Of a stretch of DNA of 64,000 nucleotides, positions 33,838 through 47,201 are shown in pieces. The position numbers and the translations under genes are program-made. The notes beneath the pieces were generated by a model, which worked only from the letters and a program-made list of their open reading frames with translations, was not told where the DNA came from and did not search any database. The stretch's first letter is position 1; the number at the start of each line of letters is the position of its first letter. Origin of the DNA: Acidobacteriota bacterium (GTDB taxonomy: Bacteria; Acidobacteriota; Terriglobia; Acidiferrales; UBA7541); the NCBI GenBank assembly GCA_013289835.1, contig JABCZG010000027.1, positions 951 through 64,950 on the forward strand, given 5' to 3'.

Positions 33838-35199
33838 TTAGTTAAGCAGAGTGCGGATTCGGCGAAGAGATGATGCGAATTGATCGGCGTTGTAGGCGGA
33901 GGGATTTTCGAGTTGTTGGAAGAGGGCGTTGATGGCGGCGCGGACTTCGGGGGCGTTGGCGGGCTTGGCGTCTTTGCTGTAGGCGATGTAGAGCGAATCG
34001 ATGGCCATGGTGGCTTGCTCGGCGGCGCGCTCGTCGGCGAGGGAGATATTTTCGGCGTCATCGGAAATCTGCTGGAGCATGTGCAACGCAAGAGTTTGAT
34101 TGTATGGCATGGTGGCCAGGTGTTCGGCGATTCTCTGGACTAGCGGCGCGGCAGCGGAGGCGGCGGAGGCAACGGCGTTGCGATCGGAATTGAGTTTGCT
34201 CATTTCGCCGGAAACAAGTAGCAACTGTCGATCCAATTCTTGCGCGCTTGCGGAATCGATTTGCTTCGCCAGCAAACGAAAGACGGTGTATCTGGAACTG
34301 TTCCACGCCGGATCGCCGGGGCGACGCCCGGCGAAACCATGTTCCTGGCGCCAACTGTCTTTTGCGGGGCCCAGGGAATGGTGGCAGGCGAAACAGGAAA
34401 GTTCGGAATACTCGGGCCACACATCTTTTTTGTCGAAGCGTTCGTTTTTTGCGCGCCAGGTGAGTCTTTCCATTTCTGCGCGCAATTGCACGGCCTGGCC
34501 GGTGCTCCATTCGCGAACGCCAACCCACGCGGCATCTTCGACGGGTTTACCGGGCTCGGATTCGCGCGGGACTTTCCAGTGGCGCGGCATCACGGCGGAA
34601 AACGAATCGAGTTCGAAATAGAGGTCAGGATGGCCAGCCGCGATCATCTCGTGGTCCACAAATTTGTTTTTTGTTCCAAGATGGCATTCGAGGCATTTTT
34701 CGGTGCGATGAATCACGTCGCGCGTGTCCGCCATTCCTAGCGCGACGGATTTTTCATGCGGCCACGAACGCGTGGTGTGTGGACCCAGCCATGCCGAAGC
34801 GGGTCCGTGGCAATTCTCGCAGGAGACGCCCTCGGAGATTTCGAACGCGCGGCCGCGCTGTTCGGGCGGCGGATTCAGTGCGTGACACGCCAGGCACTTT
34901 GGCGATTCTTCGGCCTTCGCGCCGAGTTTCAGAATTCGAGCCATGCGTTCGCCGACGTCTCCGGTCAGCGCCTGGTAGGCGCGGCTGTGCTTGTCCTGGA
35001 TGATCCAAGTGGAATATTCGTTTTGGAAAATCCGACTGCCGGCGATGGGTTTTACGCTGCCGTGGCAACTCGTTGCCGCGCAGGAGCCTGGGCCGATGTA
35101 TTTGATGGGCTCATTCTGGGCAGAAAGCACCGCCGGGATAGCCAGGAACCATGCGCAGAGGACAACGCGAAGGATGCAGAGGTTGGAGAATTTGCGCAT
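33838..35199 (-). CDS. Secreted multiheme c-type cytochrome (4 CxxCH + 1 Cx4CH) with helical C-terminal domain
   Basis: Start at MRKFSNLCILRVVLCAWFLAIPAVLSAQ (signal peptide). Heme motifs CAATSCH, CLACH, CENCH, CLECH and CFACH. The last ~200 aa are heme-free. Confidence 0.8.
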   Translation of the reverse strand: MRKFSNLCILRVVLCAWFLAIPAVLSAQNEPIKYIGPGSCAATSCHGSVKPIAGSRIFQNEYSTWIIQDKHSRAYQALTGDVGERMARILKLGAKAEESPKCLACHALNPPPEQRGRAFEISEGVSCENCHGPASAWLGPHTTRSWPHEKSVALGMADTRDVIHRTEKCLECHLGTKNKFVDHEMIAAGHPDLYFELDSFSAVMPRHWKVPRESEPGKPVEDAAWVGVREWSTGQAVQLRAEMERLTWRAKNERFDKKDVWPEYSELSCFACHHSLGPAKDSWRQEHGFAGRRPGDPAWNSSRYTVFRLLAKQIDSASAQELDRQLLLVSGEMSKLNSDRNAVASAASAAAPLVQRIAEHLATMPYNQTLALHMLQQISDDAENISLADERAAEQATMAIDSLYIAYSKDAKPANAPEVRAAINALFQQLENPSAYNADQFASSLRRIRTLLN

Positions 35200-35414: not shown

Positions 35415-37145
35415 GTGATCTTCGACGACCTACGGGCCATTCAGCTTCGCCATGGCTTCCTGCCAAAGGCGGAATTGGAGGGCCTCTCACAACGCACCCA
35501 GACGCCACTCTATCAGCTTCATAGTGTCGCGAGTTTTTATCCCCATTTTCATCTGGTGCCGCCGGCCAAAGCGGAAATTCGCGTGTGCGCGGACATGAGC
35601 TGCCGGTTGAATGGCGCGTGCGAGCTTCGCGCGGATGTGGAGCGGCGATTTGCCGACGCGCGCCCAGAGGATGTGCAGATTCGCGATGTTTCGTGTCTTG
35701 GGCGCTGCGATCACGCGCCTGCTGTATCCATCAACGATGCGATTTTCACGGATGTGAGCGGCGAACACGCCGAGGAGATTGCGCGGCGCGCGATCCGCGG
35801 GGAGGACATTCACGAGCCGCATCCGGAGCAGGCGCGGGTGGAGTGCAAGGCGGATCCTTATGGTGATGGCGCGGCGCAAAACGAACGATATGACGTCGTT
35901 CGAAAGCTTGCGCAATCGCGCGCGTTCGAAAACGTTATTGCACAGCTGAAAGCGGCCGAGCTGCGTGGGATGGGCGGGGCGGGATTTCCTACGAGCATGA
36001 AGTGGGATCTGGTGCGAAAAGAGGCCGACCCGGTCAAATATATTGTGTGCAACGCGGATGAGAGCGAGCCGGGCACGATTAAAGACCGCTTCATCATGAC
36101 GCATCTGCCGCATTTGCTGATCGAAGGGATGATCCTCGCGGGGATGGTCACCGGCGCAAAGCGCGGGATCCTTTACATCCGGCACGAATATCATCTGCAG
36201 GAAGAAATTCTTGGTGAAGAGATTCGACGCTGTTATCGGGCGGGGCTGCTGGGAAAAAGCATTCTTGGAACACCGCTGGCGTTTGATCTGGAAGTTTTTG
36301 TCAGCCCCGGCGGATACATTTGCGGGGAAGAGTCGGCGCTGCTGGAGGCCATCGAAGGGCACCGCGCGGAGCCGCGCAACAAACCTCCTTTTCCGGTGCA
36401 AGCAGGTCTCTGGCAGAAACCGACGGTCATCAACAATGTCGAGACATTTATTAACGTCCCGCAGATTCTGGCGCGGGGAGTGGATTGGTTTGCAGCGCAA
36501 GGCGCAGGGGTGTCGCGCGGGTTGAAATTTGTTGGCGTCAGCGGGCACGTGGCGCGGCCGGGGATTTTCGAAGTGGCCATGGGGACGCCGATGCGCGAGG
36601 TAATTTTCAAACACGCGGGCGGAATTCGCGGCGGCCGCGAATTGAAAGCGTTTGCGCCGTCCGGACCGTCGTCAGGGTATCTTCCTGCTTCGATGGTTGA
36701 TGTGCGTCTGGATTTCAAGGCGCTTGCCGAAGCCGGCTCGATGCTGGGATCCGGAGCGATCGTTGTGTGCGACGACAGTACTTGCATGTTGGACATGGCG
36801 CTGGCTGCGGTGCGCTTTTATCGCAATGAATCGTGCGGCAAATGCGTTCCCTGCCGCGTGGGGTCGCAGAAAATGACGGATATGCTGGTGCGCTGGACGC
36901 AAGGCGGATTGCCCGAATCGCAATATCTGGCGGACCTCGCGCTGCTCGAGGAACTGTCGCAGGCCATGAGTTTAACTTCGATCTGCGGGCTTGGGCAGAT
37001 TGTTCCTGCGCCGATTCAGTCAGTGCTGAAACATTTTCGGGCTGAAATTGACGCGCATGTTTTGAAGGGGCAGTGTCCGAGCGGGATTTGTTTTACGCCT
37101 GCTGCGCGTGCGGGAGAAGCGCAGCGCGTTGGGATTCGACCTTGA
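35415..37145 (+). CDS. Fused NuoE-like/NuoF-like NAD(P)H dehydrogenase flavoprotein
   Basis: NuoE-type 2Fe-2S ligands (CADMSC ... CLGRC). NuoF motifs GMGGAGFPT (FMN), CNADESEPGT (NADH) and ESCGKCVPCRVG (4Fe-4S). GTG 35415 is chosen because the 35151 start would overlap the divergent cytochrome gene. The start is uncertain. Confidence 0.85.
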   Translation: MIFDDLRAIQLRHGFLPKAELEGLSQRTQTPLYQLHSVASFYPHFHLVPPAKAEIRVCADMSCRLNGACELRADVERRFADARPEDVQIRDVSCLGRCDHAPAVSINDAIFTDVSGEHAEEIARRAIRGEDIHEPHPEQARVECKADPYGDGAAQNERYDVVRKLAQSRAFENVIAQLKAAELRGMGGAGFPTSMKWDLVRKEADPVKYIVCNADESEPGTIKDRFIMTHLPHLLIEGMILAGMVTGAKRGILYIRHEYHLQEEILGEEIRRCYRAGLLGKSILGTPLAFDLEVFVSPGGYICGEESALLEAIEGHRAEPRNKPPFPVQAGLWQKPTVINNVETFINVPQILARGVDWFAAQGAGVSRGLKFVGVSGHVARPGIFEVAMGTPMREVIFKHAGGIRGGRELKAFAPSGPSSGYLPASMVDVRLDFKALAEAGSMLGSGAIVVCDDSTCMLDMALAAVRFYRNESCGKCVPCRVGSQKMTDMLVRWTQGGLPESQYLADLALLEELSQAMSLTSICGLGQIVPAPIQSVLKHFRAEIDAHVLKGQCPSGICFTPAARAGEAQRVGIRP

Positions 37146-37146
37146 T

Positions 37147-39318
37147 ATGACGACTGCCGCTACACCTCCGGGAATGGTGGACATCACGCTCGACGGGAAC
37201 GTCGTACGTGTGCCTGCGGGCGTGAGCGTTTTTGACGCGGCGCGCATGAATGGCGTCAACATCCCTACTCTTTGCCATTTGCAGAACCAGACTCCTGTGG
37301 GGGTGTGCCGGCTTTGCGTTGTGGACACGGGCGCGCGCGTTCTCACCGCTTCCTGCGTTCGAACGGTCGAGCCGGGGATGAAGGTGGTCACAAATTCGGA
37401 GAAAGTTCTGAATGCGCGCAAGACGCTGCTTGAGTTGATGATGTCCGATCATCCTTCGCCTTGCGTGCGACAACAGAATTCGGGCGATTGCGAATTGGAA
37501 ATGCATGCGAGGGCGGCTGGGGCTTCTCAAGCGCGATTCGCAAAGCGCACGGTCGCTCGCGGCAAGGATGATTCATCGCTGGCAATCGCTGTGGATCACG
37601 ACGCCTGCATTCTGTGCGACCGGTGCATCCGCGGATGTGATGAGGTAAAAAGCAATTTTGTGCTCGGGCGTATGGGCAAAGGGTACTCCGCAGGAATTGC
37701 ATTCGATCTGAATTCGCCGATGGGGGATTCCACGTGCATTTCTTGCGGCGAGTGCATGGTGTCCTGTCCCACGGGTGCGTTGACGAACAAGAGCGTCGTC
37801 GGCACTGCGATTGCGGCGGGGCCTGATGCGCAGGGCTTCGAGGCGGAAGATCTTCTGCAGATTCCCGTTTTCAAGGGAGTTTCCGGGACATTTCTTGAGC
37901 TCAATCGCGGCGCGATCGTCAAGCGCCGGTTCCGCAAGGGCGATCTCATGTGCCGCGAAGGGGAGTTCGGGTCGACAGCGTTCTACATTCTGGAAGGCAA
38001 GGCCAAAGTATCCATTTCCACGCCCATTGCGCACGTGAAGACGCAGGGTGGGGCCAAGGGATTTTTCAAACGACTTACCAGCACGCTGGTCGCGCGCGAG
38101 GAGGACAAGCGCGAGGGGGAAACGCGGGACAGGACGATTCCGATTGATGCTTCCGTGGATCTTTCGTATGGGAACCCCGTAGCGGAACTTGGGCCCGGCG
38201 ATCTATTTGGCGAAATGACGTGCATGAATTTTTACCCGCGGTCGGCGACGGTGGTTGCGGAATCGGATGTGGTCGCGTTCGAAATGCTGCGGAATGTTCT
38301 GGATATCATGCTGAAGAACAAGACGTTTCGCGCGCAACTGGATCAAACGTACCGGCGGCGGGCTCTGGAAAATCATCTGCGCGGCGTCCCCATGTTCGCA
38401 GACCTCTCGGCTGATTTCATCGAGCACCTGAAGGAGAGTGTGGAGTTGCAGCGATTTGCTCCCGGCCAGACCATCGCGCTGCAGGGCGAGCCGGCGGACT
38501 GTTTCTATCTGGTGCGCATCGGCTTTGTGAAGATTTCGGAAAATTATCCGGGCGGCGAGATGGTGCTCGCGTATTTATCGCGCGGTGATTATTTTGGAGA
38601 GATCGGATTGCTGGGCGGTGGGATTCGAACGGCGACTTGCACGGCGCTGGACCACGTTGAGGTTGTACGGATTTCAGGTGATGATTTCCGCGACATGGTC
38701 GCGCGTTTTCCGAGCGTTCGAACGGGGCTGGAAACCGTGGCGTCGGAGCGGCGCGCGGCGAATCAGCAGCGCATGCAGATGGTTCATAACGTCTCCATCG
38801 ATCAATTTTTGTCACAAGGATTGATGGAAGCGCAGAGCCTGCTGATTCTGGATTTGCAGAATTGCACGCGTTGCGATGCTTGCGTGAATGCCTGCGCGGA
38901 CGCACATGACGGCGTAACGCGGCTGGTGCGCGATGGGTTGCGTTTCGATCAATATCTTGTGGCCACAAGCTGCCGGCAGTGCCGCGATCCGCTGTGCATG
39001 GTGGGCTGCCCGGTTGGCTCGATTCGAAGGCGGAATTCGCTGGAAGTGATTATTGAAGATTGGTGCATCGGGTGCGGGCTGTGCGCGCAGAATTGTCCAT
39101 ACGGAAATATTAATTTGCATCCGTTTGAAGTGATGGTGGACGATCCGGAGCGGGCTGGGCGGAAGAAGGCGGCGATCAAGCAGAAGGCGACGTCGTGCGA
39201 TCTTTGCACGCATTTGAAAGAGCCGAGTTGCGTGTATGCGTGTCCGCATGATGCGGCGCATCGCGTGGATCCCAGGACATTTTTCGCCGAGATGCTTGGG
39301 CAGGGTTCCACGAAATGA
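37147..39318 (+). CDS. FeS protein: NuoG-type N-terminal FeS module + 2 cyclic-nucleotide-binding domains + DmsB/HybA-type 4x[4Fe-4S] module
   Basis: N-terminal 2Fe-2S ferredoxin fold (VDITLDGNVVRVPAG...CHLQ...GVCRLCVV). 4Fe-4S motifs CILCDRCIRGC and CISCGECMVSCP. Two CAP-type cassettes (FGEMTCMNFYPRSATVVA, FGEIGLLGGGIRTATCTA). C-terminal motifs CTRCDACVNAC, CRQCRDPLCMVGCP, CIGCGLCAQNCP and CDLC...CVYACP. No HTH. Confidence 0.8.
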   Translation: MTTAATPPGMVDITLDGNVVRVPAGVSVFDAARMNGVNIPTLCHLQNQTPVGVCRLCVVDTGARVLTASCVRTVEPGMKVVTNSEKVLNARKTLLELMMSDHPSPCVRQQNSGDCELEMHARAAGASQARFAKRTVARGKDDSSLAIAVDHDACILCDRCIRGCDEVKSNFVLGRMGKGYSAGIAFDLNSPMGDSTCISCGECMVSCPTGALTNKSVVGTAIAAGPDAQGFEAEDLLQIPVFKGVSGTFLELNRGAIVKRRFRKGDLMCREGEFGSTAFYILEGKAKVSISTPIAHVKTQGGAKGFFKRLTSTLVAREEDKREGETRDRTIPIDASVDLSYGNPVAELGPGDLFGEMTCMNFYPRSATVVAESDVVAFEMLRNVLDIMLKNKTFRAQLDQTYRRRALENHLRGVPMFADLSADFIEHLKESVELQRFAPGQTIALQGEPADCFYLVRIGFVKISENYPGGEMVLAYLSRGDYFGEIGLLGGGIRTATCTALDHVEVVRISGDDFRDMVARFPSVRTGLETVASERRAANQQRMQMVHNVSIDQFLSQGLMEAQSLLILDLQNCTRCDACVNACADAHDGVTRLVRDGLRFDQYLVATSCRQCRDPLCMVGCPVGSIRRRNSLEVIIEDWCIGCGLCAQNCPYGNINLHPFEVMVDDPERAGRKKAAIKQKATSCDLCTHLKEPSCVYACPHDAAHRVDPRTFFAEMLGQGSTK

Positions 39319-40295
39319 GAATGGACAAGACACAGCGCGGATGGGCCTTGGCGGCGGCCGCAATTCTCATGGTGTCGGCTGTGATCTACGTGCTTTATGC
39401 GCTTGGTTCGACGCAAGGACCGCGCGGTAGTAGCGCGATTGGCCTGACTTTTGGCGTCATCGGTTTCGCGTTTATGATTTTCGCGGCGCTGCTCGGGGCG
39501 CGGAAGCGGGTTCCGACTTGGCGTGTTGGGCGTGCACAGACCTGGATGCGCGGGCATCTTTGGCTCGGTTTTCTGGCGCTGCCGATTATTCTTTTTCATG
39601 GCGGATTTCATTTTGGCGGGACGCTCACGCGAGTTTTGATGTGGCTGCTCATTATCACGGTGTTTAGCGGGGTGTTTGGCGCGGCGCTGCAACATTATAT
39701 TCCGCGGGTGATGACTGCGGAGGTGCCGCTGGAGACGATTTACGATGAGATTGGGCACGTGCGATCGCTGCTTCGCGAAGAAGCCGATCGCGCGGTCGAA
39801 TCCGTGTGCGGTCCGATCGGCCTAGACAAAACTTCCGATGCGGAGGTTCGACGCGCTGGGGGATTCACGGCATTGCGCGCGATTGCCGCGTCTGCCGTAC
39901 CACTAAGGACATCGGCTGCGGTCAGCGCGGGCGCAAGCGCGGCCGTTGCGGCTGCACCGGAGATTATTTTGTTAAGCGAAGAGGAAAGTGCGCCGCTACG
40001 CCGATTCTATTTGCAAGAGATGCGGCCGTTTCTCGAGCATCCGGAGCGGCGCGGGCAACGGCTCGGGGATGAGCAGAAGGCGGCCTGCGCGTTTGCGGGA
40101 TTACAAACTTTGCTGCCTGCTGCGGCGCGCGCGACGCTCGACGATCTTACGGATATTTGCGACGAGGCGCGGCAACTGCAGCGGCAGGCGCGGCTGCATC
40201 ACTGGCTGCATGGGTGGTTGCTGGTGCATATTCCGCTTTCGCTTGCGCTGATTTTGCTCGGCGTGGTTCATGCGGTGATGGCGCTGCGCTACTAA
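39315..40295 (+). CDS. Integral membrane protein, putative diheme cytochrome b
   Basis: Five predicted TM helices. His pairs lie 14 positions apart in two helices (HLWLGFLALPIILFH and HIPLSLALILLGVVH). The start overlaps the upstream stop (ATGA). Heme binding is an inference. Confidence 0.6.
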   Translation: MRMDKTQRGWALAAAAILMVSAVIYVLYALGSTQGPRGSSAIGLTFGVIGFAFMIFAALLGARKRVPTWRVGRAQTWMRGHLWLGFLALPIILFHGGFHFGGTLTRVLMWLLIITVFSGVFGAALQHYIPRVMTAEVPLETIYDEIGHVRSLLREEADRAVESVCGPIGLDKTSDAEVRRAGGFTALRAIAASAVPLRTSAAVSAGASAAVAAAPEIILLSEEESAPLRRFYLQEMRPFLEHPERRGQRLGDEQKAACAFAGLQTLLPAAARATLDDLTDICDEARQLQRQARLHHWLHGWLLVHIPLSLALILLGVVHAVMALRY

Positions 40296-40304
40296 CAGGA
40301 AAAC

Positions 40305-41777
40305 GTGGCACGCACACGCACAACGAAAAAACTGGCGCAGCGGATCGACCTCAATTACTTCAAGAGGCCGACGCCGCTGAAGCGGGCGAAATTCTGGCTC
40401 AGCGTGCTTCTGCCGCTGCTTGCGCTGGTGTGGATTGCGGAGCGGACTGTTTTCAGGGACTCGCGCGTTTACAGCAGCGGACGGCTGTCGGAACCGCATG
40501 CGGTGCTTGAAAAAGAATGCGCGGCGTGTCACGTGCTGCAAGCCGGGGCGTTTTCCGCGAAGGCTGCCGATAACGCTTGCCTCGCGTGTCACGACGGGCC
40601 GATCCATCATGTCAATCAGACAAAATCGCTTGAATGCGCAGCTTGCCACTCGGAACACCGCGGCCGCGTGAACGTTCGCGCGGCAAGCGATCAGAGCTGC
40701 GCGGAATGTCATGGGGACTTGAAAGCGAGCGGCGGAGCGATACATTTCGCGTCGCGCATTCACAGCTTTGAAGATGGACACCCGGAGTTTGCGAGGCTGC
40801 GTGACGGGGCGCGCGATCCGGGGACGATCAAGCTCAATCACGCGATTCACATGAAGGCGATTCGGCGTGGGCCCAATGGGCCGATGGTCAGGCTTGAATG
40901 CCGCAATTGTCACCATGCGACCGCAGTAGATGCGGACTTGACCTACGCTGATCCGAAGTACCGCGCCGCGAGCGTGAGCTACAAAGATAGCGACGAAGTG
41001 CTTACGATTCAGGCGGGAACACTCTCGCCTTCCCATCCAATCAGCGGACGCGAGCGGATGGCGCCGGTGAAATTCGCGAGTGCTTGCGCGGCCTGCCACT
41101 TGCTTACATTCGATAAGCGATTTGACGACGGCGTTCCACACGATAAGCCGGAAATCATATATGCGTTCCTCGTGAAGAAATTCCGCGAGTATATCGCGGC
41201 GCACCCGGCGGAGCTACGCGTGCAACGTGATCCGAGCCGAGACATTACGGGAAAGCCCATGGCGCCGGAGGCTCGCATCCTCACGCCTGCGCAGTGGGTT
41301 GCGGAGCGCACCGGCGAAGCCGAGGAACTTTTGTGGCGCAAGACCTGCAACCAATGCCACAAGTTGACTCCTTCTGCAAAAGGTTTGCCAGGAAGGATTG
41401 AGCAATCGGTCCGAGAAAGTGACGCTGGCAAAGGCAATGACAACTCCGTTGAACTGCCATACGTCGTGGCGGCGAACACCACACTGCAGTGGATGCCGCA
41501 TGCGAGATTCGATCATTCAGCGCACACGGGATTTACCTGCGTGAGTTGCCATGCGAAAGCGCTTACGAGCACGGAGGCTAGCGATATTTTGTTGCCGGGG
41601 ATTGCGACTTGCCAGAAGTGCCATGCGCCGGGGGCGGAACATGCGGAGTCGCGGTGTTTCGAATGCCATACGTATCATGATTGGTCGAAGCGCAAGGAAG
41701 TGACGCCGGCGTTTACGCTGCCCGCGCTGCGAACCGGACAGGTTCGCGTTGAAACTCATTCGAACGATGGACGATAA
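40305..41777 (+). CDS. Membrane-anchored decaheme c-type cytochrome
   Basis: N-terminal signal anchor (FWLSVLLPLLALVWIA). Ten CxxCH motifs: CAACH, CLACH, CAACH, CAECH, CRNCH, CAACH, CNQCH, CVSCH, CQKCH, CFECH. GTG start. Confidence 0.85.
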   Translation: MARTRTTKKLAQRIDLNYFKRPTPLKRAKFWLSVLLPLLALVWIAERTVFRDSRVYSSGRLSEPHAVLEKECAACHVLQAGAFSAKAADNACLACHDGPIHHVNQTKSLECAACHSEHRGRVNVRAASDQSCAECHGDLKASGGAIHFASRIHSFEDGHPEFARLRDGARDPGTIKLNHAIHMKAIRRGPNGPMVRLECRNCHHATAVDADLTYADPKYRAASVSYKDSDEVLTIQAGTLSPSHPISGRERMAPVKFASACAACHLLTFDKRFDDGVPHDKPEIIYAFLVKKFREYIAAHPAELRVQRDPSRDITGKPMAPEARILTPAQWVAERTGEAEELLWRKTCNQCHKLTPSAKGLPGRIEQSVRESDAGKGNDNSVELPYVVAANTTLQWMPHARFDHSAHTGFTCVSCHAKALTSTEASDILLPGIATCQKCHAPGAEHAESRCFECHTYHDWSKRKEVTPAFTLPALRTGQVRVETHSNDGR

Positions 41778-42191: not shown

Positions 42192-43400
42192 CTATGCGAC
42201 CTCGTTGGTCATCAGGAAAAGGGGGCGCATTTCGAAGCTGGCATATTGCGGGCGGAGGCGGTCGGTGTTGTATTGCTCCTTGACGTTGACGAGCTTTTTC
42301 GTGGAAGTAACGGTCTCTAGCGGAATGTTGTCGTAATGACCGTTTTTGAGGACGACGAGGCGCCCGCTGATTTTTTTCAGGAGCAGATCGAGAGCGAGAT
42401 TGCCGTAAGCCATGGGAGCGATGGAATCAATGGCGTCGGGGTCGCCGCAACGCACGAGATAGCCTAGTTTTTGGGCGATGACGTCGATTTTTTTGCCGTT
42501 GTTGAATTTAGCGGAGATATCCCTCACTCGTTCGGCGACGATATCGCCGATGCCACCGAGCTTTTTGTGGCCGAAGGCGTCGGCTGCCTCGCCTTCAAAA
42601 ACCATTTCGCCGCCTTCGAACATGGCGCCTTCCGAAACAAGGACGATCGAGTATTTGCTGGGATTCTTGCGGCGATCCGCGACCAGCAACTCGGTGAGAT
42701 GCTCGATATTGAACTTAAATTCGGGGATGACGCAGCGGTTAGCCGCGCCGGCCATGGTGGGAAGCATGGCGGTGAAGCCGGCGTAACGGCCGAAAACTTC
42801 AAGGACCATGAAGCGTTCGTGGGAGCCCGCGGAGGTCCGCAAACTATTGACCATTTGAATCGTGCGCGTGACGCAGGTGCTGAATCCGATGCAGTAATCC
42901 GTGCCCGGAACGTCGTTGTCCATGGTCTTGGGAATGCCGATGACTTTGAAGCCTTCTTTGTGGAGACGAACGCCATAGCTGAGCGTGTCATCGCCGCCAA
43001 TGGGAATCAGCGTGTCGATGCCCAGCCAAGCGAGGTTCTTGAGGATCTCGGGTGTGAGGTCGTTTTTCTCGGCGGTGAATTTGTCCTTGAGATGAGCGGG
43101 GACGTTGGCCTTGGAGACTCGGCCGGGATTGGTGCGGGAAGAATGGAGAAATGTGCCGCCGGTGCGGCCGGCGCGATCGACGATTTCCTCGTCGAGGAGA
43201 AAGAAGTTGTCAGAGTTGTCGAAGTCCTTCTCGCGGACCATATCCACGAGGCCCGCCCAGCCGTGGCGAATGCCAATGACCTGGTAGCCCTCGCGGATGG
43301 CGCGGAGAGTGACGCCGCGGATGGCGGGGTTGAGACCGGGAACGTCGCCCCCTCCGGTCAAGATGCCGATAACGCCTTTTTTGGTGTTGCCGTTTGCCAT
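42192..43400 (-). CDS. pfp: 6-phosphofructokinase, pyrophosphate-dependent type
   Basis: GILTGGGDVPGLNPAIRG, IGGDDTL and GIPKTMDNDV. Asp in GGDD and Lys in PKT are the residues that distinguish PPi- from ATP-dependent PFKs. Start at MANGNTKKGVIG. Confidence 0.75.
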   Translation of the reverse strand: MANGNTKKGVIGILTGGGDVPGLNPAIRGVTLRAIREGYQVIGIRHGWAGLVDMVREKDFDNSDNFFLLDEEIVDRAGRTGGTFLHSSRTNPGRVSKANVPAHLKDKFTAEKNDLTPEILKNLAWLGIDTLIPIGGDDTLSYGVRLHKEGFKVIGIPKTMDNDVPGTDYCIGFSTCVTRTIQMVNSLRTSAGSHERFMVLEVFGRYAGFTAMLPTMAGAANRCVIPEFKFNIEHLTELLVADRRKNPSKYSIVLVSEGAMFEGGEMVFEGEAADAFGHKKLGGIGDIVAERVRDISAKFNNGKKIDVIAQKLGYLVRCGDPDAIDSIAPMAYGNLALDLLLKKISGRLVVLKNGHYDNIPLETVTSTKKLVNVKEQYNTDRLRPQYASFEMRPLFLMTNEVA

Positions 43401-43664
43401 GGGACTGAAGATCGCCCTTTCGTGGGATGCCGAACAGGAAATTATCACCTCAAGCGCAAGTTTTAGGAAGAGCAGACTCCCGTTTTTTCGGGAGAGGCAC
43501 TCCAGCGAAAAATATCATCGAATGAATCGGGAAATTCAATTGGACTTGCCCCGGTCTGGCCCCTAGATTGAATGGTCTCCGACCCGCTGAGGGAAGCGGG
43601 GGAATGTGCGTCCGACTAAGCGGCCTGCGGTGACCAGGCCACCTGCCGGGTTGCGGAAAGTTCG

Positions 43665-45200
43665 ATGACCGCCACGGCCCAACCTTCACGAATTCGAGTG
43701 CAACCCTCGTTTGTCCGCTATCAGTATGAGACCGCGTATGACGAAATGTTCAGCGCTCCGGGTGTGCCGCGAGAGCACTACCAGGCGCTGCATCGGACGC
43801 TGCTGGGGATGCCGCAAGAGGAGCTGCTTAAACGGCAGCAGGCGGCCGACCTGACGTTCCTGCACGAGGGCATTACGTTCACCGTTTACGGCAGCAAGGA
43901 GGGGACGGAGAAGATTTTTCCGAACGACCTGGTGCCGCGGATCATTCCTTCCATCGAGTGGGCAAAAATCGAGAAGGGGCTGACGCAGCGCTTGACGGCA
44001 CTGAATATGTTCCTGCGGGACATTTATCACGAAGGGCGGATTCTTTCGGAAGGGCTTATCCCGCGGGAGCTGGTTTACAGCTGCAAACATTTCCGGCGGG
44101 AAATGCGCGGATTGAACGTACCGAGAGACACGTATGTGAGCATCTGCGGGACGGACCTGGTGCGCTTGCCGGACGGAAGCTTTGCGGTGCTCGAAGACAA
44201 TCTGCGTGTGCCCAGCGGTGTTTCGTACATGCTGGCGAACCGCAAGGTGCTGAAGCGCGTGTTCCCGACGATGTTCCGGGATTACGGCGTCTGGCCTGTG
44301 GACCACTACCCGCAGGCTCTTCTGGCTACGTTGCGGAGCTTGACGCCGGAAAATTGCCAGTACCGGCAGGATCCGACGACGATTTTATTGACCCCTGGCG
44401 TATCCAACTCCGCGTACTTCGAACACACCTTTCTGGCGCAGCAGATGGGCATCGAGCTGGTGGAGGGGCGCGACCTGCTGGTGCATGACAATGTGGTGTA
44501 CATGAGAACCACGGCGGGCCTGCGGCGGGTAGATGTGATTTATCGCCGGGTGGATGACGACTTTCTGGATCCACTGTGCTTCCGGCCGGATTCTATTTTG
44601 GGAGTTCCGGGGCTCTTCAATGCGTATCGAGCGGGAAATGTGACGCTGGCCAACGCCATCGGGACGGGCGTGGCGGATGACAAAGCGGTGTATGCGTACG
44701 TGCCTGAGATCATCAAGTTCTATTTGAACGAAGAAGCCATTCTGCCTAATGTGCCCACGTTCTTGATGACCAACGGCAAGCACCGTAATCATGTACTGCA
44801 AAACCTTGAAAAAATGGTGGTCAAGGCCGTGGGAGAATCGGGCGGTTACGGAATGCTGATCGGTCCGCACAGTACGGCGCAGCAGCGGGAGGAATTTCGC
44901 GCGCGGGTTCTGGCCGAGCCCCGGAACTATATCGCGCAGCCGACTCTGTCGTTGTCTTGCGCGCCTTGCCTGATTGATGGCGAAGTCGAGTCGCGGCACA
45001 TTGATTTGCGGCCGTACATCCTGATGGGTGAGAAAGTGACGCTGGTGCCGGGAGGGCTGACGCGTGTAGCGCTGCGCAAGGGATCGCTAGTGGTGAATTC
45101 GTCGCAGGGCGGCGGGAGCAAGGATACCTGGGTGCTGCGGGAAGGCAACGGTGAGGACCGCGTGGCGAAAATCACCAGCTTTGAACGCAAGGCTGGCTGA
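43665..45200 (+). CDS. Circularly permuted ATP-grasp protein (COG2308-type)
   Basis: 511 aa. Overall pattern (YDEMF...VPR.HY..L, ...[27 protein letters not shown]...) and its position upstream of alpha-E and transglutaminase genes. Confidence 0.75.
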
Positions 45201-45266
45201 GAAAGCATGGGAACGATGAGGCCACCGAGAAACTACTTCATGAAAACATTCCGGCGGGAGGCCGGG

Positions 45267-46223
45267 ATGCTTTCGCGCGTGGCGGACAGCTTGTACTGGA
45301 TGAGCCGGTATCTGGAACGCGCGGAGCACACCGCGCGGCTTGTGGACGTGGAGTTGCAACTGTGGCTGGATCAATCGCCGGAAACGGGAGCGGGGCGCTG
45401 GAGATTTCTGCTGGAAGGATTGCATGCGCCGGGGGCGAAGGGCGCGGTGGACGCGGCGAAGTTGATGAATGCGCTGGTATTCAGCCGCACGAATGCGTCC
45501 TCGATCGTGTCGTGCATCGCGACGGCGAGGGAAAATTTGCGGCACGTGCGGGAACAATGCAGCTCGGAGATGTGGGAGCAACTGAACCGGTTGTACCTGG
45601 ATGTGATGCAGACGAATCCGGATGAGGCTTGGATGCTGAAGTCGCACGGATTTTTCAGGGCGGTGCAGGAGGGCGCCCACCTTTTTCAGGGAATTACCGA
45701 TGCGACGATGAGCCATGGGGAAGGCTGGCAGTACATTCAGCTGGGGCGGTACGTGGAACGGACGGACACGCTGGCTTCGTTGATGGAAGCGCATTTCAAA
45801 CGAAATGCGCAGCCGGCGGATCAAGTGGTGGAAAGTGCGGAGTACCTGGAATGGGTGGCGTTGTTGCGAAGCTGCCTGGCGTTTGAGGCGTACTGCAAAG
45901 CGTATACGGCGGAGATCCGGCCGCTGCGCGTGGCGGAATTCCTGATTCTGACGCCGGAGTTTCCGCATTCGGTGCGGTTTTCGGTGGACCGCATCAACGC
46001 GGCTCTGCACGTCATCGGAGACTTGACGGAGCGGCGGGAGAAATCGCCGACGCGCATTGCGGGAAGGCTGCGGGCGCAGCTGAGCTTCAGCCAGATCGAG
46101 GAGATCATGGGGCAGGGGCCGCACTCGTATCTGGAGAATGTGCGGAGTGAATGCGCGGCGATTCACAGCGCGATTCACGAGATTTATTTTGACTATCCGA
46201 TTGAGTCGGAGATGGCGTCGTAA
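45267..46223 (+). CDS. Alpha-E domain protein (COG2307-type)
   Basis: The N-terminus MLSRVADSLYWMSRYLERAEHTARLVDV is the hallmark start of this family. Confidence 0.8.
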   Translation: MLSRVADSLYWMSRYLERAEHTARLVDVELQLWLDQSPETGAGRWRFLLEGLHAPGAKGAVDAAKLMNALVFSRTNASSIVSCIATARENLRHVREQCSSEMWEQLNRLYLDVMQTNPDEAWMLKSHGFFRAVQEGAHLFQGITDATMSHGEGWQYIQLGRYVERTDTLASLMEAHFKRNAQPADQVVESAEYLEWVALLRSCLAFEAYCKAYTAEIRPLRVAEFLILTPEFPHSVRFSVDRINAALHVIGDLTERREKSPTRIAGRLRAQLSFSQIEEIMGQGPHSYLENVRSECAAIHSAIHEIYFDYPIESEMAS

Positions 46224-46241
46224 TTTTTCGAACGGAGTGAT

Positions 46242-47201
46242 ATGGCGTATTCGGTGCGGCACATCACGCGGTTTCGGTATGAACCGGCGGTGCGGGAAAG
46301 CGTGATGGAGGTGCGGCTGCAGCCGCGAACGGATATGCGGCAGCGTTGTCTTTCGTTTTCGCTCGACGTGACTCCGCGGGCCAACATCATGGTGTATAGG
46401 GATTTTTTTGGGAACGCCGTGCACCACTTTGATATTCCGGGGCAACATGAGGTGGTGGAAGTGGCGGCGCAGGCGATTGTGGAGGTTCTGCCGCCGACGC
46501 CTTCGCTGGCCACTTATGCATGCGATTGGGAAGAGCTTGATGAGCGCGTGGCGGAGGGGGATTACTGGGAGATGCTGCTTCCCAGCCATTTCGCGCGGCC
46601 GACGGAGCTATTGGAAAAGTTGCGGGCTGAGCTGAAGCTTCGGCGGCAGGGGAATCCGCTGGAGTTGCTGCAGGAATTGAATACGGAACTGTATGAATCT
46701 TTCGAGTACGCTCCAAACACGACGAAAGTGGATTCGCCGATTGATGATGCGCTGGAGGCGCGGCGGGGAGTTTGCCAGGATTTCGCGCACATTATGATTG
46801 CGCTGGTGCGGCAGCTGAAAATTCCGTGCCGGTATGTGAGCGGGTATTTGTACCACGAGGACAAAGTGAAGGACCGCTCACCGGCCGGCGCGACGCATGC
46901 GTGGGTGGAGGCTTATCTCGGAGAGATGGGATGGGTGGCGTTTGACCCGACGAACAATTTGCCGGGCTGTGAGCGGCATATTCGCGTGGCCGTGGGGCGC
47001 GACTACGCCGATGTTCCGCCGACGCGCGGCGTGTACAAGGGAGAGGCGGCTAGCGAATTGAGCGTGCTTGTGTCGGTCGCCCCGATCGATGCGCCGGAGC
47101 CAGAGGAATTGCCGCCCGTCATGGTGATACGATCCAAACCATTGAACTCGGCTTCGAGTTTGGCGCTTGACCACCAGCAGCAACAGCAGCAACAACAATA
47201 A
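46242..47201 (+). CDS. Transglutaminase-family protein (Bact_transglu_N + transglutaminase core) with poly-Gln tail
   Basis: Catalytic-core motifs GVCQDFAHIMIAL, HAWVEAY and GWVAFDPTN. It ends in HQQQQQQQQ. Confidence 0.85.
   Translation: MAYSVRHITRFRYEPAVRESVMEVRLQPRTDMRQRCLSFSLDVTPRANIMVYRDFFGNAVHHFDIPGQHEVVEVAAQAIVEVLPPTPSLATYACDWEELDERVAEGDYWEMLLPSHFARPTELLEKLRAELKLRRQGNPLELLQELNTELYESFEYAPNTTKVDSPIDDALEARRGVCQDFAHIMIALVRQLKIPCRYVSGYLYHEDKVKDRSPAGATHAWVEAYLGEMGWVAFDPTNNLPGCERHIRVAVGRDYADVPPTRGVYKGEAASELSVLVSVAPIDAPEPEELPPVMVIRSKPLNSASSLALDHQQQQQQQQ

Follow-up and report, generated by a model that had tools for sequence, protein, structure and literature searches.

Within the window, by which we mean the whole 64,000-nucleotide stretch of acidobacterial DNA that was analysed, an unbroken open reading frame encodes a 723-residue protein equal in length to its closest homologues. 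From N- to C-terminus it carries a [2Fe-2S] and two [4Fe-4S] cluster sites, two cyclic nucleotide-binding (CNB) domains in tandem, and a four-cluster C-terminus resembling DmsB and HydN (Table 1). The motifs from which the initial annotation had deduced this arrangement are all present: CILCDRCIRGC (residues 154–164), CISCGECMVSCP (197–208), FGEMTCMNFYPRSATVVA (354–371), FGEIGLLGGGIRTATCTA (483–500) and HPSPCVRQQNSGDCELE (102–118). Its observation that the chain has no helix-turn-helix (HTH) or other output domain agrees with the Pfam search of the protein, and the existence of the architecture is confirmed far beyond chance.

Table 1. Features of the 723-residue protein and of the gene cluster around it, in window positions.
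Feature	Position	Strand	Basis
Periplasmic tetrahaem cytochrome c, c554-like, divergent	33838..35199	-	Pfam Cytochrome_C554, 44 bits; four CxxCH; N-terminal hydrophobic segment
NuoE-NuoF fusion, candidate NADH/FMN input, HoxE/HoxF-like	35415..37145	+	Pfam 2Fe-2S_thioredx, Complex1_51K (145 bits), SLBB, NADH_4Fe-4S; NCBIfam nuoF_fam, 458 bits
HoxU-like / CNB / CNB / four-cluster ferredoxin protein, 723 aa	37147..39318	+	Pfam, NCBIfam, alignments, motif check, AF2, Foldseek
[2Fe-2S] ferredoxin fold, residues 10–84; Cys43, 54, 57, 70	37174..37398	+	Pfam Fer2_4, 59.1 bits
Degenerate His-ligated [4Fe-4S] site; H102, C106, Q109, C115	37450..37491	+	Alignment to HydA1/FdsA
Two [4Fe-4S] sites; Cys154/157/160/164 and Cys197/200/203/207	37585..37791	+	Pfam Fer4 families, Fer4_Nqo3; Cys conserved family-wide
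CNB domain 1 (CNB-1), residues 240–400, with low-confidence ~45–55-residue insert (~residues 291–344)	37864..38346	+	Pfam; AF2 secondary structure and pLDDT; PDB alignments to PKA-R
Phosphate-binding cassette 1, FGEMTCMNFYPRSATVVA	38206..38259	+	Conservation; aligns with Bcy1 cassette FGELALMYNSPRAATVVA
CNB domain 2 (CNB-2), residues 401–546, including long C-terminal helix (511–546)	38347..38784	+	Best Pfam stretch 435–520; AF2
Phosphate-binding cassette 2, FGEIGLLGGGIRTATCTA	38593..38646	+	Conservation; aligns with Bcy1 FGEVALLNDLPRQATVTA
Four-cluster [4Fe-4S] ferredoxin module, residues 561–715, 16 Cys	38827..39291	+	Pfam Fer4_9/Fer4_7/Fer4_10/Fer4_11; NCBIfam HydN and DmsB partial matches
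Membrane protein, 326 aa, five TM helices, ~165-residue cytoplasmic helical insert; candidate dihaem b-type cytochrome	39315..40295	+	TM prediction
Decahaem cytochrome c with a membrane anchor (single TM helix at the N-terminus), ten CxxCH	40305..41777	+	Pfam Cytochrome_C7, Cytochrom_c3_2, Paired_CXXCH_1

The AF2 model of the protein has a mean pLDDT of 86 and a pTM of 0.78, and Foldseek and phmmer liken its middle to the tandem CNB domains of PKG and PKA-R and its N-terminus to NuoG, HydA and FdsA. Relatives number more than 5,000 90%-identity clusters (E <= 1e-10) and, at the stricter E < 1e-30, 1,470 clusters of 50% identity, and GTDB species-representative genomes hold at least 567 similar stretches. 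Residue conservation was scored over 150 diverse representatives drawn from 50%-identity clusters. The CNB domains and the Fe-S modules are conserved to much the same degree (88–90% against 85–94% in close relatives, 40% against 44–53% in distant ones).

The likeness of the N-terminus to NuoG and formate dehydrogenase, part of the original reading, is upheld by the Fer2_4 and Fer4 matches and by the alignment of residues 10–220 with the N-termini of HydA1, FdsA and NuoG; Foldseek superposes this part on 7t2r_A, 8a6t_A and 6tg9_A (NuoG/HydA/FdsA type) with an rmsd that is mostly ~2–4 Å and reaches 6.2 Å. The four [2Fe-2S] cysteines are kept in 71–75 of the 74–82 representatives that have a residue at those columns, and several Pfam 4Fe-4S families match residues 147–215 and 600–705. 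The His-ligated cluster expected after the [2Fe-2S] fold had been thought degenerate, HPSPCVRQQNSGDCELE having only two Cys, and the alignment agrees: the motif reads HxxxCxxQxxxxxC against HxxxCxxCxxxxxC, with Gln at the second Cys. Family-wide, position 109 has no Cys among its five most frequent residues, Asn is commoner than Cys at position 115, and Cys occupies position 106 in only 29/57; the site is evidently lost across the family. Like the HoxEFU diaphorase, the NuoEFG N-module, FdsABG and the HydABC N-terminus, the protein thus adjoins NuoE and NuoF and has the [2Fe-2S] plus 2x[4Fe-4S] fold in its first 220 residues, but it differs from them in the lost His-ligated site and in a chain that runs on, first into the CNB domains and then into the ferredoxin module with its four clusters. 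Its best NCBIfam matches are partial, to [FeFe]-hydrogenase A6 (200 bits, residues 11–221) and HoxU (163.7 bits). We rejected membership of HoxU (equivalog cut-off 333 bits; no HoxYH in the cluster) and of NuoG (117.6 bits against a cut-off of 470; no Nuo membrane genes in the cluster), and a bifurcating HydABC-type function was dropped because the NuoE-NuoF fusion has standard NuoE and NuoF domains only by Pfam.

All 16 C-terminal Cys fall into four CxxCx(2-7)Cx3C groups, in keeping with the DmsB/HybA-like end that had been described, and are 92–100% conserved among the diverse representatives; no other part of the protein is as well conserved as this module. DmsB, FdnH, NarH, HybA and HydN likewise have four Cys groups, but here a Mo-bisPGD partner is lacking and two CNB domains precede the module. 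Family scores fall well below the cut-offs both for HydN (57 bits against 260) and for DmsB (49.2 against 214.1). Pfam searches of the cluster and its flanking genes found neither a molybdopterin or hydrogenase catalytic partner nor a hydrogenase, formate dehydrogenase or quinone module. FdnH pairs with FdnI and NarH with NarI, in each case a ferredoxin subunit with a dihaem b membrane subunit, and the module of the present protein similarly adjoins a candidate dihaem b membrane subunit.

Between the two Fe-S regions, Pfam cNMP_binding (PF00027, CAP_ED) matches at 127.7 bits (cut-off 27.5, E 1.7e-37) in three stretches over two domains, which bears out the pair of CNB domains first recognised by motif. 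AF2 pLDDT is ~85–97 across both CNB cores; Foldseek assigns the CNB fold (beta-barrel plus alphaB/alphaC) a probability of 1.0 to the PKG/PKA-R structures 4z07, 6h4g and 3of1, and phmmer alignments with 3of1 and 5j3u extend from the first phosphate-binding cassette through CNB-2. Helices modelled at 382–412 join the two barrels, and CNB-2 ends in helices 511–520 and 522–546, from which a disordered 8-residue linker (pLDDT <50 at 547–554) leads into the ferredoxin module. Both cassettes have the canonical length and match the pattern FGE[LIV]AL...PR[ST/A]A, with Glu356/Arg365 in the first and Glu485/Arg494 in the second. Among the diverse representatives cassette 1 keeps G355 in 131/131, E356 in 128/131, R365 in 131/140 and A367 in 119/136, and cassette 2 keeps G484 in 135/136, E485 in 121/136, R494 in 114/137 and A496 in 109/139; for the two together, over the 150 representatives, Gly is 99–100%, Glu 89–98% and Arg 83–94% conserved. 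The ligand-contacting Glu and Arg persist in orthologues down to ~40% identity and in two phyla, an outcome in favour of the initial annotation, which had named loss of the phosphate-binding residues as a reason to abandon its reading. At the hinge-contact position where a canonical cassette has Leu, CNB-1 has C359 (119/134). The beta2-beta3 Gly position holds Gly275 in 116/136 for CNB-1 and Ala450 (91/141) or Ser for CNB-2; E. coli CAP presumably has Ala at this position as well. In canonical cassettes the Glu contacts the ribose and the Arg the phosphate, and canonical cAMP binders keep the beta2-beta3 Gly (Gly169 of PKA RI-alpha) together with the phosphate-contacting Arg (PMC2246266). The conserved Glu and Arg suggest that the tandem may bind a cyclic nucleotide, cAMP or cGMP. 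PKA-R and PKG resemble it in having two consecutive CNB domains (CNB-A/CNB-B) with canonical cassettes, linked by the alphaB/C helix of the first domain; they differ in that the present protein and its cluster have, by Pfam, no kinase partner, inhibitor sequence or dimerisation/docking domain, in the ~50-residue insert and hinge-contact Cys of CNB-1, and in relative domain orientation (rmsd 12–21 Å).

The start codon of the downstream membrane protein gene overlaps the stop codon of the CNB gene (ATGA). Its topology was deduced from TM prediction and charge distribution, and it has two pairs of histidines, His81/His95 and His305/His319, that are invariant in homologues of 26–45% BLASTP identity (28–38% in MAFFT alignments); the members of each pair are 14 residues apart, and the pairs lie on two TM helices at matching membrane depths. 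Pfam finds no match to the window's membrane protein. Among its homologues there are sub-threshold matches, to Ferric_reduct in one distant case (27.6 bits, cut-off 28) and weakly to DUF4405/Ni_hydr_CYTB in others. The AF2 model, made from a shallow alignment, is poor (pLDDT 63.6), and Foldseek and a profile search of PDB sequences gave no meaningful fold or sequence relative in the PDB. The protein belongs to a new family, and from the His pattern and the sub-threshold matches it probably carries two b-haems. The NOX, ferric-reductase-domain and MsrQ (YedZ) proteins work by the logic proposed here, passing electrons from a cytoplasmic nicotinamide nucleotide through two transmembrane haems to a periplasmic acceptor, and also have two His pairs on two helices; the window's protein differs from them in that neither Pfam nor the PDB gives it a significant match, in its large cytoplasmic insert and in its TM helices, of which it has five where they have six, and its predicted input is a complex-I-type FMN/Fe-S chain, not an FNR-like FAD domain.

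The NuoE-NuoF stop lies 2 nt ahead of the ATG of the CNB gene, and the two genes are, to judge by this arrangement, translationally coupled. The mechanical open reading frame of the fusion begins at 35151 and its likely start is GTG 35415; for the tetrahaem cytochrome, start-codon analysis favours ATG 35199, which is followed by a signal peptide. The cluster was counted in 86 related loci (with the nuoEF, CNB, membrane protein and decahaem set in ~80 Acidoferrales) and in 91 more distant ones: NuoEF is present in 84/86 and 83/91 respectively, the membrane protein gene adjoins the CNB gene in 83/86 and 78/91, the decahaem cytochrome (with 8–10-haem counterparts in some distant loci) is present in 84/86 and 76/91, and the tetrahaem cytochrome adjoins the cluster in 76/86 and 56/91. 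Loci examined one by one, with CNB proteins 40–59% identical to that of the window, have it too, and two of these (L090 and L091) are planctomycete. The cluster thus recurs in Acidoferrales, in Planctomycetota and in a further acidobacterial clade, sister to the first. Ten flanking genes have unrelated functions by Pfam, and a promoter and terminator scan returned chance-level matches only. The Fe-S anatomy behind the initial annotation's “iron-sulfur electron-transfer protein” therefore stands, but the protein is not free-standing: it serves as connector subunit in a conserved cluster of NuoEF, b-type membrane protein and multihaem cytochrome c. In a Rosetta-stone variant (P0189) NuoE-NuoF and the CNB protein are fused in one chain, some lineages encode the HoxU part by a separate gene, and FHA-domain fusions to the CNBx2-FeS core occur; full fusions, with the CNB pair exactly between the two Fe-S modules, make up 58/150 representatives. 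The conserved core is, from this comparison, CNBx2 plus 4x[4Fe-4S].

Class III cyclases of two unrelated types lie near the cluster in some lineages. GAF-type cyclases, orthologous at 41% identity, adjoin it in L084 and in the planctomycete L090, and a CHASE2-type cyclase is found within 10 kb in 12 sister-clade acidobacterial loci, directly downstream of the cluster in 6 of them. By tblastn, neither the window nor 80 Acidoferrales loci have a cyclase or phosphodiesterase (PDE) within ±12 kb. Overall 15/91 loci have a cyclase within 10 kb, which is not far above chance where genomes are rich in cyclases; what is suggestive is their conserved position alone.

Taken with these findings, we put at about even chances the proposal that the cluster specifies an undescribed transmembrane conduit from NADH to periplasmic cytochromes, with its Fe-S connector under allosteric cyclic-nucleotide control. 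The CNB protein would be the central connector of a five-gene respiratory-type complex, in which cytoplasmic NADH is oxidised by the NuoE-NuoF fusion (FMN, [2Fe-2S], [4Fe-4S]) and electrons pass to the HoxU-like N-terminus ([2Fe-2S], two [4Fe-4S]) and then to the C-terminal four-cluster ferredoxin. From there they would reach the membrane protein of five helices, whose two proposed bis-His b-haems would be stacked from one face of the membrane to the other, and the membrane-anchored periplasmic decahaem cytochrome, and probably go onward to the tetrahaem cytochrome. Hmc and Tmc of sulfate reducers and Geobacter Cbc likewise move electrons through the membrane by joining Fe-S proteins of the cytoplasm to a membrane cytochrome b and to multihaem cytochromes c of the periplasm, with no sequence relationship detected between the membrane subunits; none of them is known to include a CNB domain or an NADH dehydrogenase module. 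On binding cAMP or cGMP the tandem would move a hinge formed by the CNB-2 helix and the 8-residue linker into the ferredoxin, and so make or break the path between HoxU-like part and ferredoxin module or between ferredoxin module and membrane subunit. That a cyclic nucleotide thus mechanically connects or disconnects a complex-I-type NADH/FMN/Fe-S input and a four-cluster ferredoxin feeding new dihaem membrane and periplasmic multihaem cytochromes, as an NADH-to-outside electron valve in abundant soil bacteria of the Acidobacteriota and Planctomycetota, is a tentative proposal, somewhat less likely than not. The Fe-S wire of the connector may be continuous regardless of ligand. The gating originally suggested was intramolecular, which need not hold, since some lineages encode the HoxU-like part separately. 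A fast post-translational switch would make physiological sense because export of electrons from inside to outside spends both NADH and membrane potential.

The same complex could also operate with a CNB tandem that is a constitutive scaffold, or that binds a nucleoside, an NAD(H)-derived nucleotide or some other metabolite, and with no cAMP/cGMP switch, which we consider unlikely. In trypanosome PKA-R the ligand of the CNB fold is a nucleoside, and in CooA it is haem. Non-cNMP ligands of CNB folds are known (PMC2246266; PMC10959531), most loci have no nearby cyclase or PDE, and CNB-1 is unusual in its conserved Cys for Leu and its large insert. Nevertheless, both cassettes are of canonical length and keep the phosphate Arg and ribose Glu at 83–98% in two phyla, whereas families that bind other ligands typically lose these residues (PMC2246266), and two unrelated cyclase types are linked to the cluster in different lineages. 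Rather doubtful is a role in which the tandem does bind a cNMP but controls assembly or localisation, for example docking of the NuoEF-FeS part onto the membrane b-cytochrome, or oligomerisation: the position of the CNB pair exactly between the Fe-S modules in the full fusions argues against it, but in split-gene lineages the tandem simply forms the N-terminal part of the subunit that carries the four-cluster ferredoxin, FHA-fused variants suggest regulated protein–protein interaction, and the ~165-residue cytoplasmic domain of the membrane protein could be a docking site.

Electrons might run the other way: donors in the periplasm or outside the cell, Fe(II) for example, would reduce NAD+ by way of the cytochromes and b-haems. 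A host lineage linked to iron cycling and the reversibility, in principle, of NuoEF/HoxEFU-type modules would fit such a course. We think it improbable on bioenergetic grounds, as electrons would have to go to the negative side of the membrane from the positive one, against its potential, the donors of the periplasm mostly lie far above NAD+/NADH in potential, and the cluster has no ion-translocating subunit to pay for it. More improbable still is a redox or second-messenger sensor in which the Fe-S clusters are sensory cofactors and not a conduit; a signalling domain is present and some relatives have FHA domains, but the protein lacks an output domain, the order of its seven cluster sites is that of genuine electron-transfer subunits, its gene is, in two phyla, translationally coupled to those for an NADH dehydrogenase module and for cytochromes of the membrane and periplasm, and in P0189 it is fused to NuoEF. 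The membrane subunit could instead reduce quinone, the decahaem protein then being a quinol oxidase.

If the cyclic nucleotide-controlled conduit is correct, a second messenger would act on the protein itself, and not by way of transcription or phosphorylation, to switch the passage of electrons within an Fe-S chain of respiratory type, which to our knowledge would be the first case of its kind, and the cluster would define both a new NADH:periplasmic-cytochrome transmembrane complex and a new membrane cytochrome family. Literature searches found no published description of a CNB/Fe-S oxidoreductase architecture, and in its main text the CNB census PMC2246266 says nothing of partners of ferredoxin or Fe-S type. 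For uncultured Acidoferrales the cluster is a concrete candidate route by which cytoplasmic reducing power could reach extracytoplasmic acceptors, with control of a costly leak. Genes for multihaem cytochromes led to the proposal that Ca. Acidoferrum reduces Fe(III), and Ca. Acidoferrales has been proposed as a lineage that dominates Fe(III) cycling in acidic soils of the tropics (PMC7980381); since the hosts of the cluster include Ca. Acidoferrales, it offers a testable route for the delivery of electrons outward.

The target is a 723-residue protein whose reading frame is intact and whose length, counted from its ATG, exactly matches that of its closest homologues; an alternative GTG start lies at 37108. 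The initial annotation had described a NuoG-like iron-sulfur N-terminus, two cyclic nucleotide-binding (CNB) domains and a DmsB/HybA-like C-terminus with four Cys clusters, and Pfam, NCBIfam, alignment to PDB sequences and a motif check confirm this architecture, with every motif it quoted present at its position in the protein. The Pfam cNMP_binding model scores 127.7 bits (cut-off 27.5) and so supports the CNB domains, Fer2_4 covers residues 10-84, NADH-G_4Fe-4S_3 matches residues 91-125 below threshold, and 4Fe-4S families match residues 147-215 and 600-705; as had been proposed, the Pfam scan finds no HTH or any other output domain. NCBIfam relates residues 11-221 to [FeFe]-hydrogenase group A6 (200 bits), HoxU (164 bits) and NuoG N-termini, and residues 566-711 to HydN, DmsB and AegA-type four-cluster ferredoxins, every score lying far under the equivalog cut-off. 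A PDB-sequence search aligns residues 10-220 with HydA1 (7q4v), FdsA (6tg9) and NuoG, and the C-terminus holds 16 Cys in four groups. Databases name the homologues only as 'cyclic nucleotide-binding domain-containing protein' or 'CRP-like cAMP-binding protein/Fe-S-cluster-containing hydrogenase component'.

An AF2 model built on a 61-sequence alignment (mean pLDDT 86.2, pTM 0.78) is of low confidence only at residues 1-7, 721-723, 300-327 (within an insert in CNB-1) and 547-554, the last being an eight-residue linker that joins CNB-2, at the end of its long C-terminal helix, to the ferredoxin module. In a Foldseek search the N-terminus matches NuoG/HydA/FdsA (rmsd 1.9-6.2 Å, mostly about 2-4 Å) and the middle matches the tandem CNB structures of PKG and PKA-R (probability 1.0); the search finds no solved structure that covers the whole chain. 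In the alignment with HydA1, FdsA and NuoG the His-cluster motif HxxxCxxCxxxxxC has become HxxxCxxQxxxxxC. The suspicion that this site is degenerate holds family-wide: Cys occupies position 106 in just 29 of 57 sequences, the residues listed for position 109 include Pro, Gln, Glu and His with Cys absent from the five commonest, and at position 115 Asn is commoner than Cys. The His-ligated cluster has been lost throughout the family, and its loss is no local oddity of the target.

Conservation was measured on the best 150 of 1,470 clusters recovered at E < 1e-30 in an exhaustive search of 1.84 billion cluster representatives; these are 38-83% identical to the target (full-length ones 41-56%). 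In the canonical phosphate-binding cassette, as defined in PMC2246266, the Arg is the phosphate anchor; the same paper reports a co-conserved Gly between beta2 and beta3. Both cassettes of the target are of canonical length, phmmer aligns them with the cassettes that contact cAMP in yeast PKA-R (FGELALMYNSPRAATVVA and FGEVALLNDLPRQATVTA), and their phosphate-binding residues are conserved among orthologues: Gly 131/131, Glu 128/131, Arg 131/140 and Ala 119/136 in cassette 1 (CNB-1), and Gly 135/136, Glu 121/136, Arg 114/137 and Ala 109/139 in cassette 2 (CNB-2). The beta2-beta3 Gly is kept in CNB-1 (116/136), and CNB-2 has Ala or Ser there. Per-domain identity is 88-90% for the CNB cores, 85% for the HoxU-like module and 94% for the ferredoxin module among 120 close homologues, and 40%, 44% and 53%, respectively, among distant full-length representatives, in which only the CNB-1 insert and the inter-domain linkers drift to 15-20%; these figures show that the CNB cores are no decaying spacer. 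The initial annotation had itself raised a degenerate spacer as the alternative, and on the tests it named this reading fails. We consider it rather probable that the CNB domains bind a cyclic nucleotide. Three cysteines in these domains are also conserved, and might render the sensor thiol- or redox-sensitive. The CNB-1 insert terminates in a conserved IPIDAxxDL-like motif, with Asp334 in 72/84 and Pro332 in 58/81 of the insert-bearing sequences.

The target's gene belongs to a compact cluster. The NuoE-NuoF fusion upstream carries the Pfam domains 2Fe-2S_thioredx, Complex1_51K, SLBB and NADH_4Fe-4S and scores 458 bits on NCBIfam nuoF_fam. The order nuoEF, target, membrane protein, decahaem cytochrome is found in essentially all of 80 close loci (GTDB species representatives, nearly all Acidoferrales or Acidobacteria gp2 soil MAGs), where the target is the cluster's most conserved protein (81-93% identity; membrane protein 61-86%, decahaem cytochrome 54-75%). 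Farther away, the related locus L081 (43% identity) has NuoEF and a divergent multihaem cytochrome, and L086, L089, L090 and L091 have NuoEF, target, membrane protein and an 8-10-haem cytochrome in varying order. Another 91 loci, most of them drawn from a metagenome scan, include 83 with nuoEF, 78 with the membrane protein and 76 with the decahaem cytochrome; the named sources in the distant branch are Planctomycetia, Gemmatales, Gemmataceae and Isosphaerales.

Coordinates of the target, its neighbors and features at related loci (window positions unless a locus is named)
Feature	Position	Strand	Remarks
Cytochrome P450 gene	32371-33765	-	Pfam p450, 293 bits
Tetrahaem c554-like cytochrome			divergent from nuoEF; signal peptide
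NuoE-NuoF fusion	likely start GTG 35415		ends 2 nt ahead of target ATG
Target	37147-39318	+	ATG start
Cys269	37951-37953		beta3 of CNB-1; retained in 106/134
CNB-1 insert	38017-38178		residues 291-344, about 50 residues; low AF2 confidence
Cys359	38221-38223		at the canonical hinge-contact Leu position of cassette 1; 119/134 representatives
Cys498	38638-38640		beta7 of CNB-2; retained in 100/136
326-aa membrane protein			overlaps target stop (ATGA); five predicted TM helices
Decahaem cytochrome			ten nt past membrane-protein gene; one N-terminal TM helix, ten CxxCH motifs
Phosphofructokinase-family gene	42192-43448	-	downstream of cluster; syntenic in 35/86 loci
Circularly permuted ATP-grasp, Alpha-E domain and transglutaminase-like genes	43665-47201	+	three-gene set
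CHASE2-type cyclases	L127:5998-8367, L144:14522-16882	-	near cluster
FecR-like genes	L127:8427-9341, L144:16976-17782		beside CHASE2-type cyclases
P0142	L088:2463-4682		CNBx2-ferredoxin relative with FHA
Very large proteins with faint LVIVD-repeat matches	L085:3241-6819, L087:12239-17086, L090:18666-22493		near cluster

The 326-residue membrane protein matches no Pfam family, its AF2 model is poor, and neither fold search nor profile search found a relative. Its family comprises 4,626 matches; among the 120 listed none has a Pfam domain and the named entries are all 'hypothetical protein'. Four His are invariant among homologues at distant loci (26-45% identity by BLASTP, 28-38% in MAFFT alignments): one helix bears His81 and His95, another His305 and His319, with a spacing of 14 residues in each pair. 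The positive-inside distribution, in which the N-terminus and the 62-80 loop carry basic residues, would place His81/His305 near the cytoplasmic face and His95/His319 near the periplasmic face, a pattern expected of two bis-His b-haems stacked across the membrane. One distant homologue falls just short of the Pfam Ferric_reduct threshold (27.6 bits, cut-off 28) and others match DUF4405 and Ni_hydr_CYTB weakly. Judged from sequence, the protein is a candidate for a new dihaem cytochrome b family.

Variant architectures indicate which parts belong together. P0189, a homologue of 1,483 residues in a planctomycete gene context, joins NuoE-NuoF and the entire target in one chain, Rosetta-stone evidence that the two would act as one unit. 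L084 has a split form: the HoxU-like part is encoded by a gene of its own (395 aa), which stands between nuoEF and the gene for a 530-aa CNBx2-ferredoxin protein. Full fusions account for 58 of the 150 representatives, and another 48 have no HoxU part; some of these bear FHA domains or a third stretch of CNB sequence in its place. Two loci, L085 and L088, have no nuoEF nearby, and there the genes for the membrane protein and a multihaem cytochrome come directly after the CNBx2-ferredoxin gene. What stays invariant is therefore a core of CNBx2 plus 4x[4Fe-4S], the membrane protein and a multihaem cytochrome, to which the NADH module is the usual input. The CNBx2-ferredoxin relatives P0142 and P0157 carry one or two phospho-Thr-binding FHA domains, N- or C-terminal, and an FHA protein gene adjoins the CNBx2-ferredoxin gene in L088; these features suggest an extra Ser/Thr-kinase input in some lineages.

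The cluster probably encodes an NADH-linked transmembrane electron-transfer complex. In such a cytoplasm-to-periplasm conduit electrons would pass from NADH to the FMN and Fe-S centers of NuoEF, through the HoxU-like [2Fe-2S] and 2x[4Fe-4S] to the 4x[4Fe-4S] of the target, and then by two b-haems of the membrane protein to the decahaem cytochrome c and further cytochromes or acceptors. The layout resembles FdnGHI and NarGHI, in which a four-cluster subunit sits atop a dihaem b subunit, and recalls NAD(P)H-driven electron export of the NOX/MsrQ type. Outward flow would be assisted by the membrane potential and would dissipate it. Flow in reverse, toward NAD+, is disfavored, since it would oppose both the membrane potential and the redox gap to NAD+ and the cluster has no ion-pumping subunit; we therefore favor NADH oxidation as the direction. 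Since such an electron valve would be costly, fast control of it would make sense. The CNB pair lies exactly between the two Fe-S modules, and the C-terminal helix of CNB-2, the moving element in other CNB proteins, runs straight into the ferredoxin module; our best mechanistic guess is that ligand-driven repositioning would close or open the electron path. Ligand-controlled docking onto the membrane subunit, instead of internal switching, is equally compatible with these observations. The earlier proposal that a cyclic nucleotide might gate electron transfer is partly supported, and sharpened by the nuoEF, membrane protein and cytochrome context; we hold gating of electron flow by cyclic-nucleotide binding as a tentative reading, at or a little below even chances.

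Two planctomycete loci, L084 and L090, each have a class III cyclase of GAF type next to the cluster; the two cyclases are orthologues (41% identity over 576 residues) despite the split architecture of one locus and the fused architecture of the other, and a class II phosphodiesterase lies nearby in L084. Twelve loci of a sister acidobacterial clade, whose targets are 65-71% identical to that of the window, have an unrelated class III cyclase of CHASE2 type within 10 kb; in six of the twelve it is directly downstream and convergent. No cyclase lies near the cluster in the window or in the 80 Acidoferrales loci, and the overall frequency (15/91 loci) is not clearly above chance for cyclase-rich genomes, so that as a hint of cyclic-nucleotide signalling this adjacency is suggestive only. 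A FecR-domain gene precedes the CHASE2-type cyclase in the sister clade, and the two may be a sensor pair that feeds a cyclic-nucleotide signal.

Full-text literature, of which our coverage was incomplete so that absence is weak evidence, yielded no CNB-containing Fe-S oxidoreductase, and a CNB census of 30 families mentions no ferredoxin or Fe-S partners in its main text (PMC2246266). The target is a novel combination of known modules, and the whole complex with its membrane subunit appears undescribed. Ca. Acidoferrum/Acidoferrales have been proposed, from multihaem cytochrome genes, as abundant Fe(III)-cycling soil acidobacteria (PMC7980381), which fits an electron-export role of the cluster.

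The P450 gene follows the divergent tetrahaem cytochrome on its strand, 72 nt downstream, and accompanies the cluster in 51/86 loci, in the Acidoferrales branch only, an odd pairing with a periplasmic cytochrome. The phosphofructokinase-family gene has no evident functional tie to the cluster, and the ATP-grasp/Alpha-E/transglutaminase-like set looks unrelated to the target. Finally, the distant lineages of L085, L087 and L090 encode very large proteins near the cluster, 1,192-1,615 aa long, that match LVIVD repeats faintly; those of L085 and L090 also show faint multihaem-cytochrome matches, and CxxCH motifs number nine in the L085 protein and none in that of L087. These proteins may be outer or extracellular partners of the conduit.
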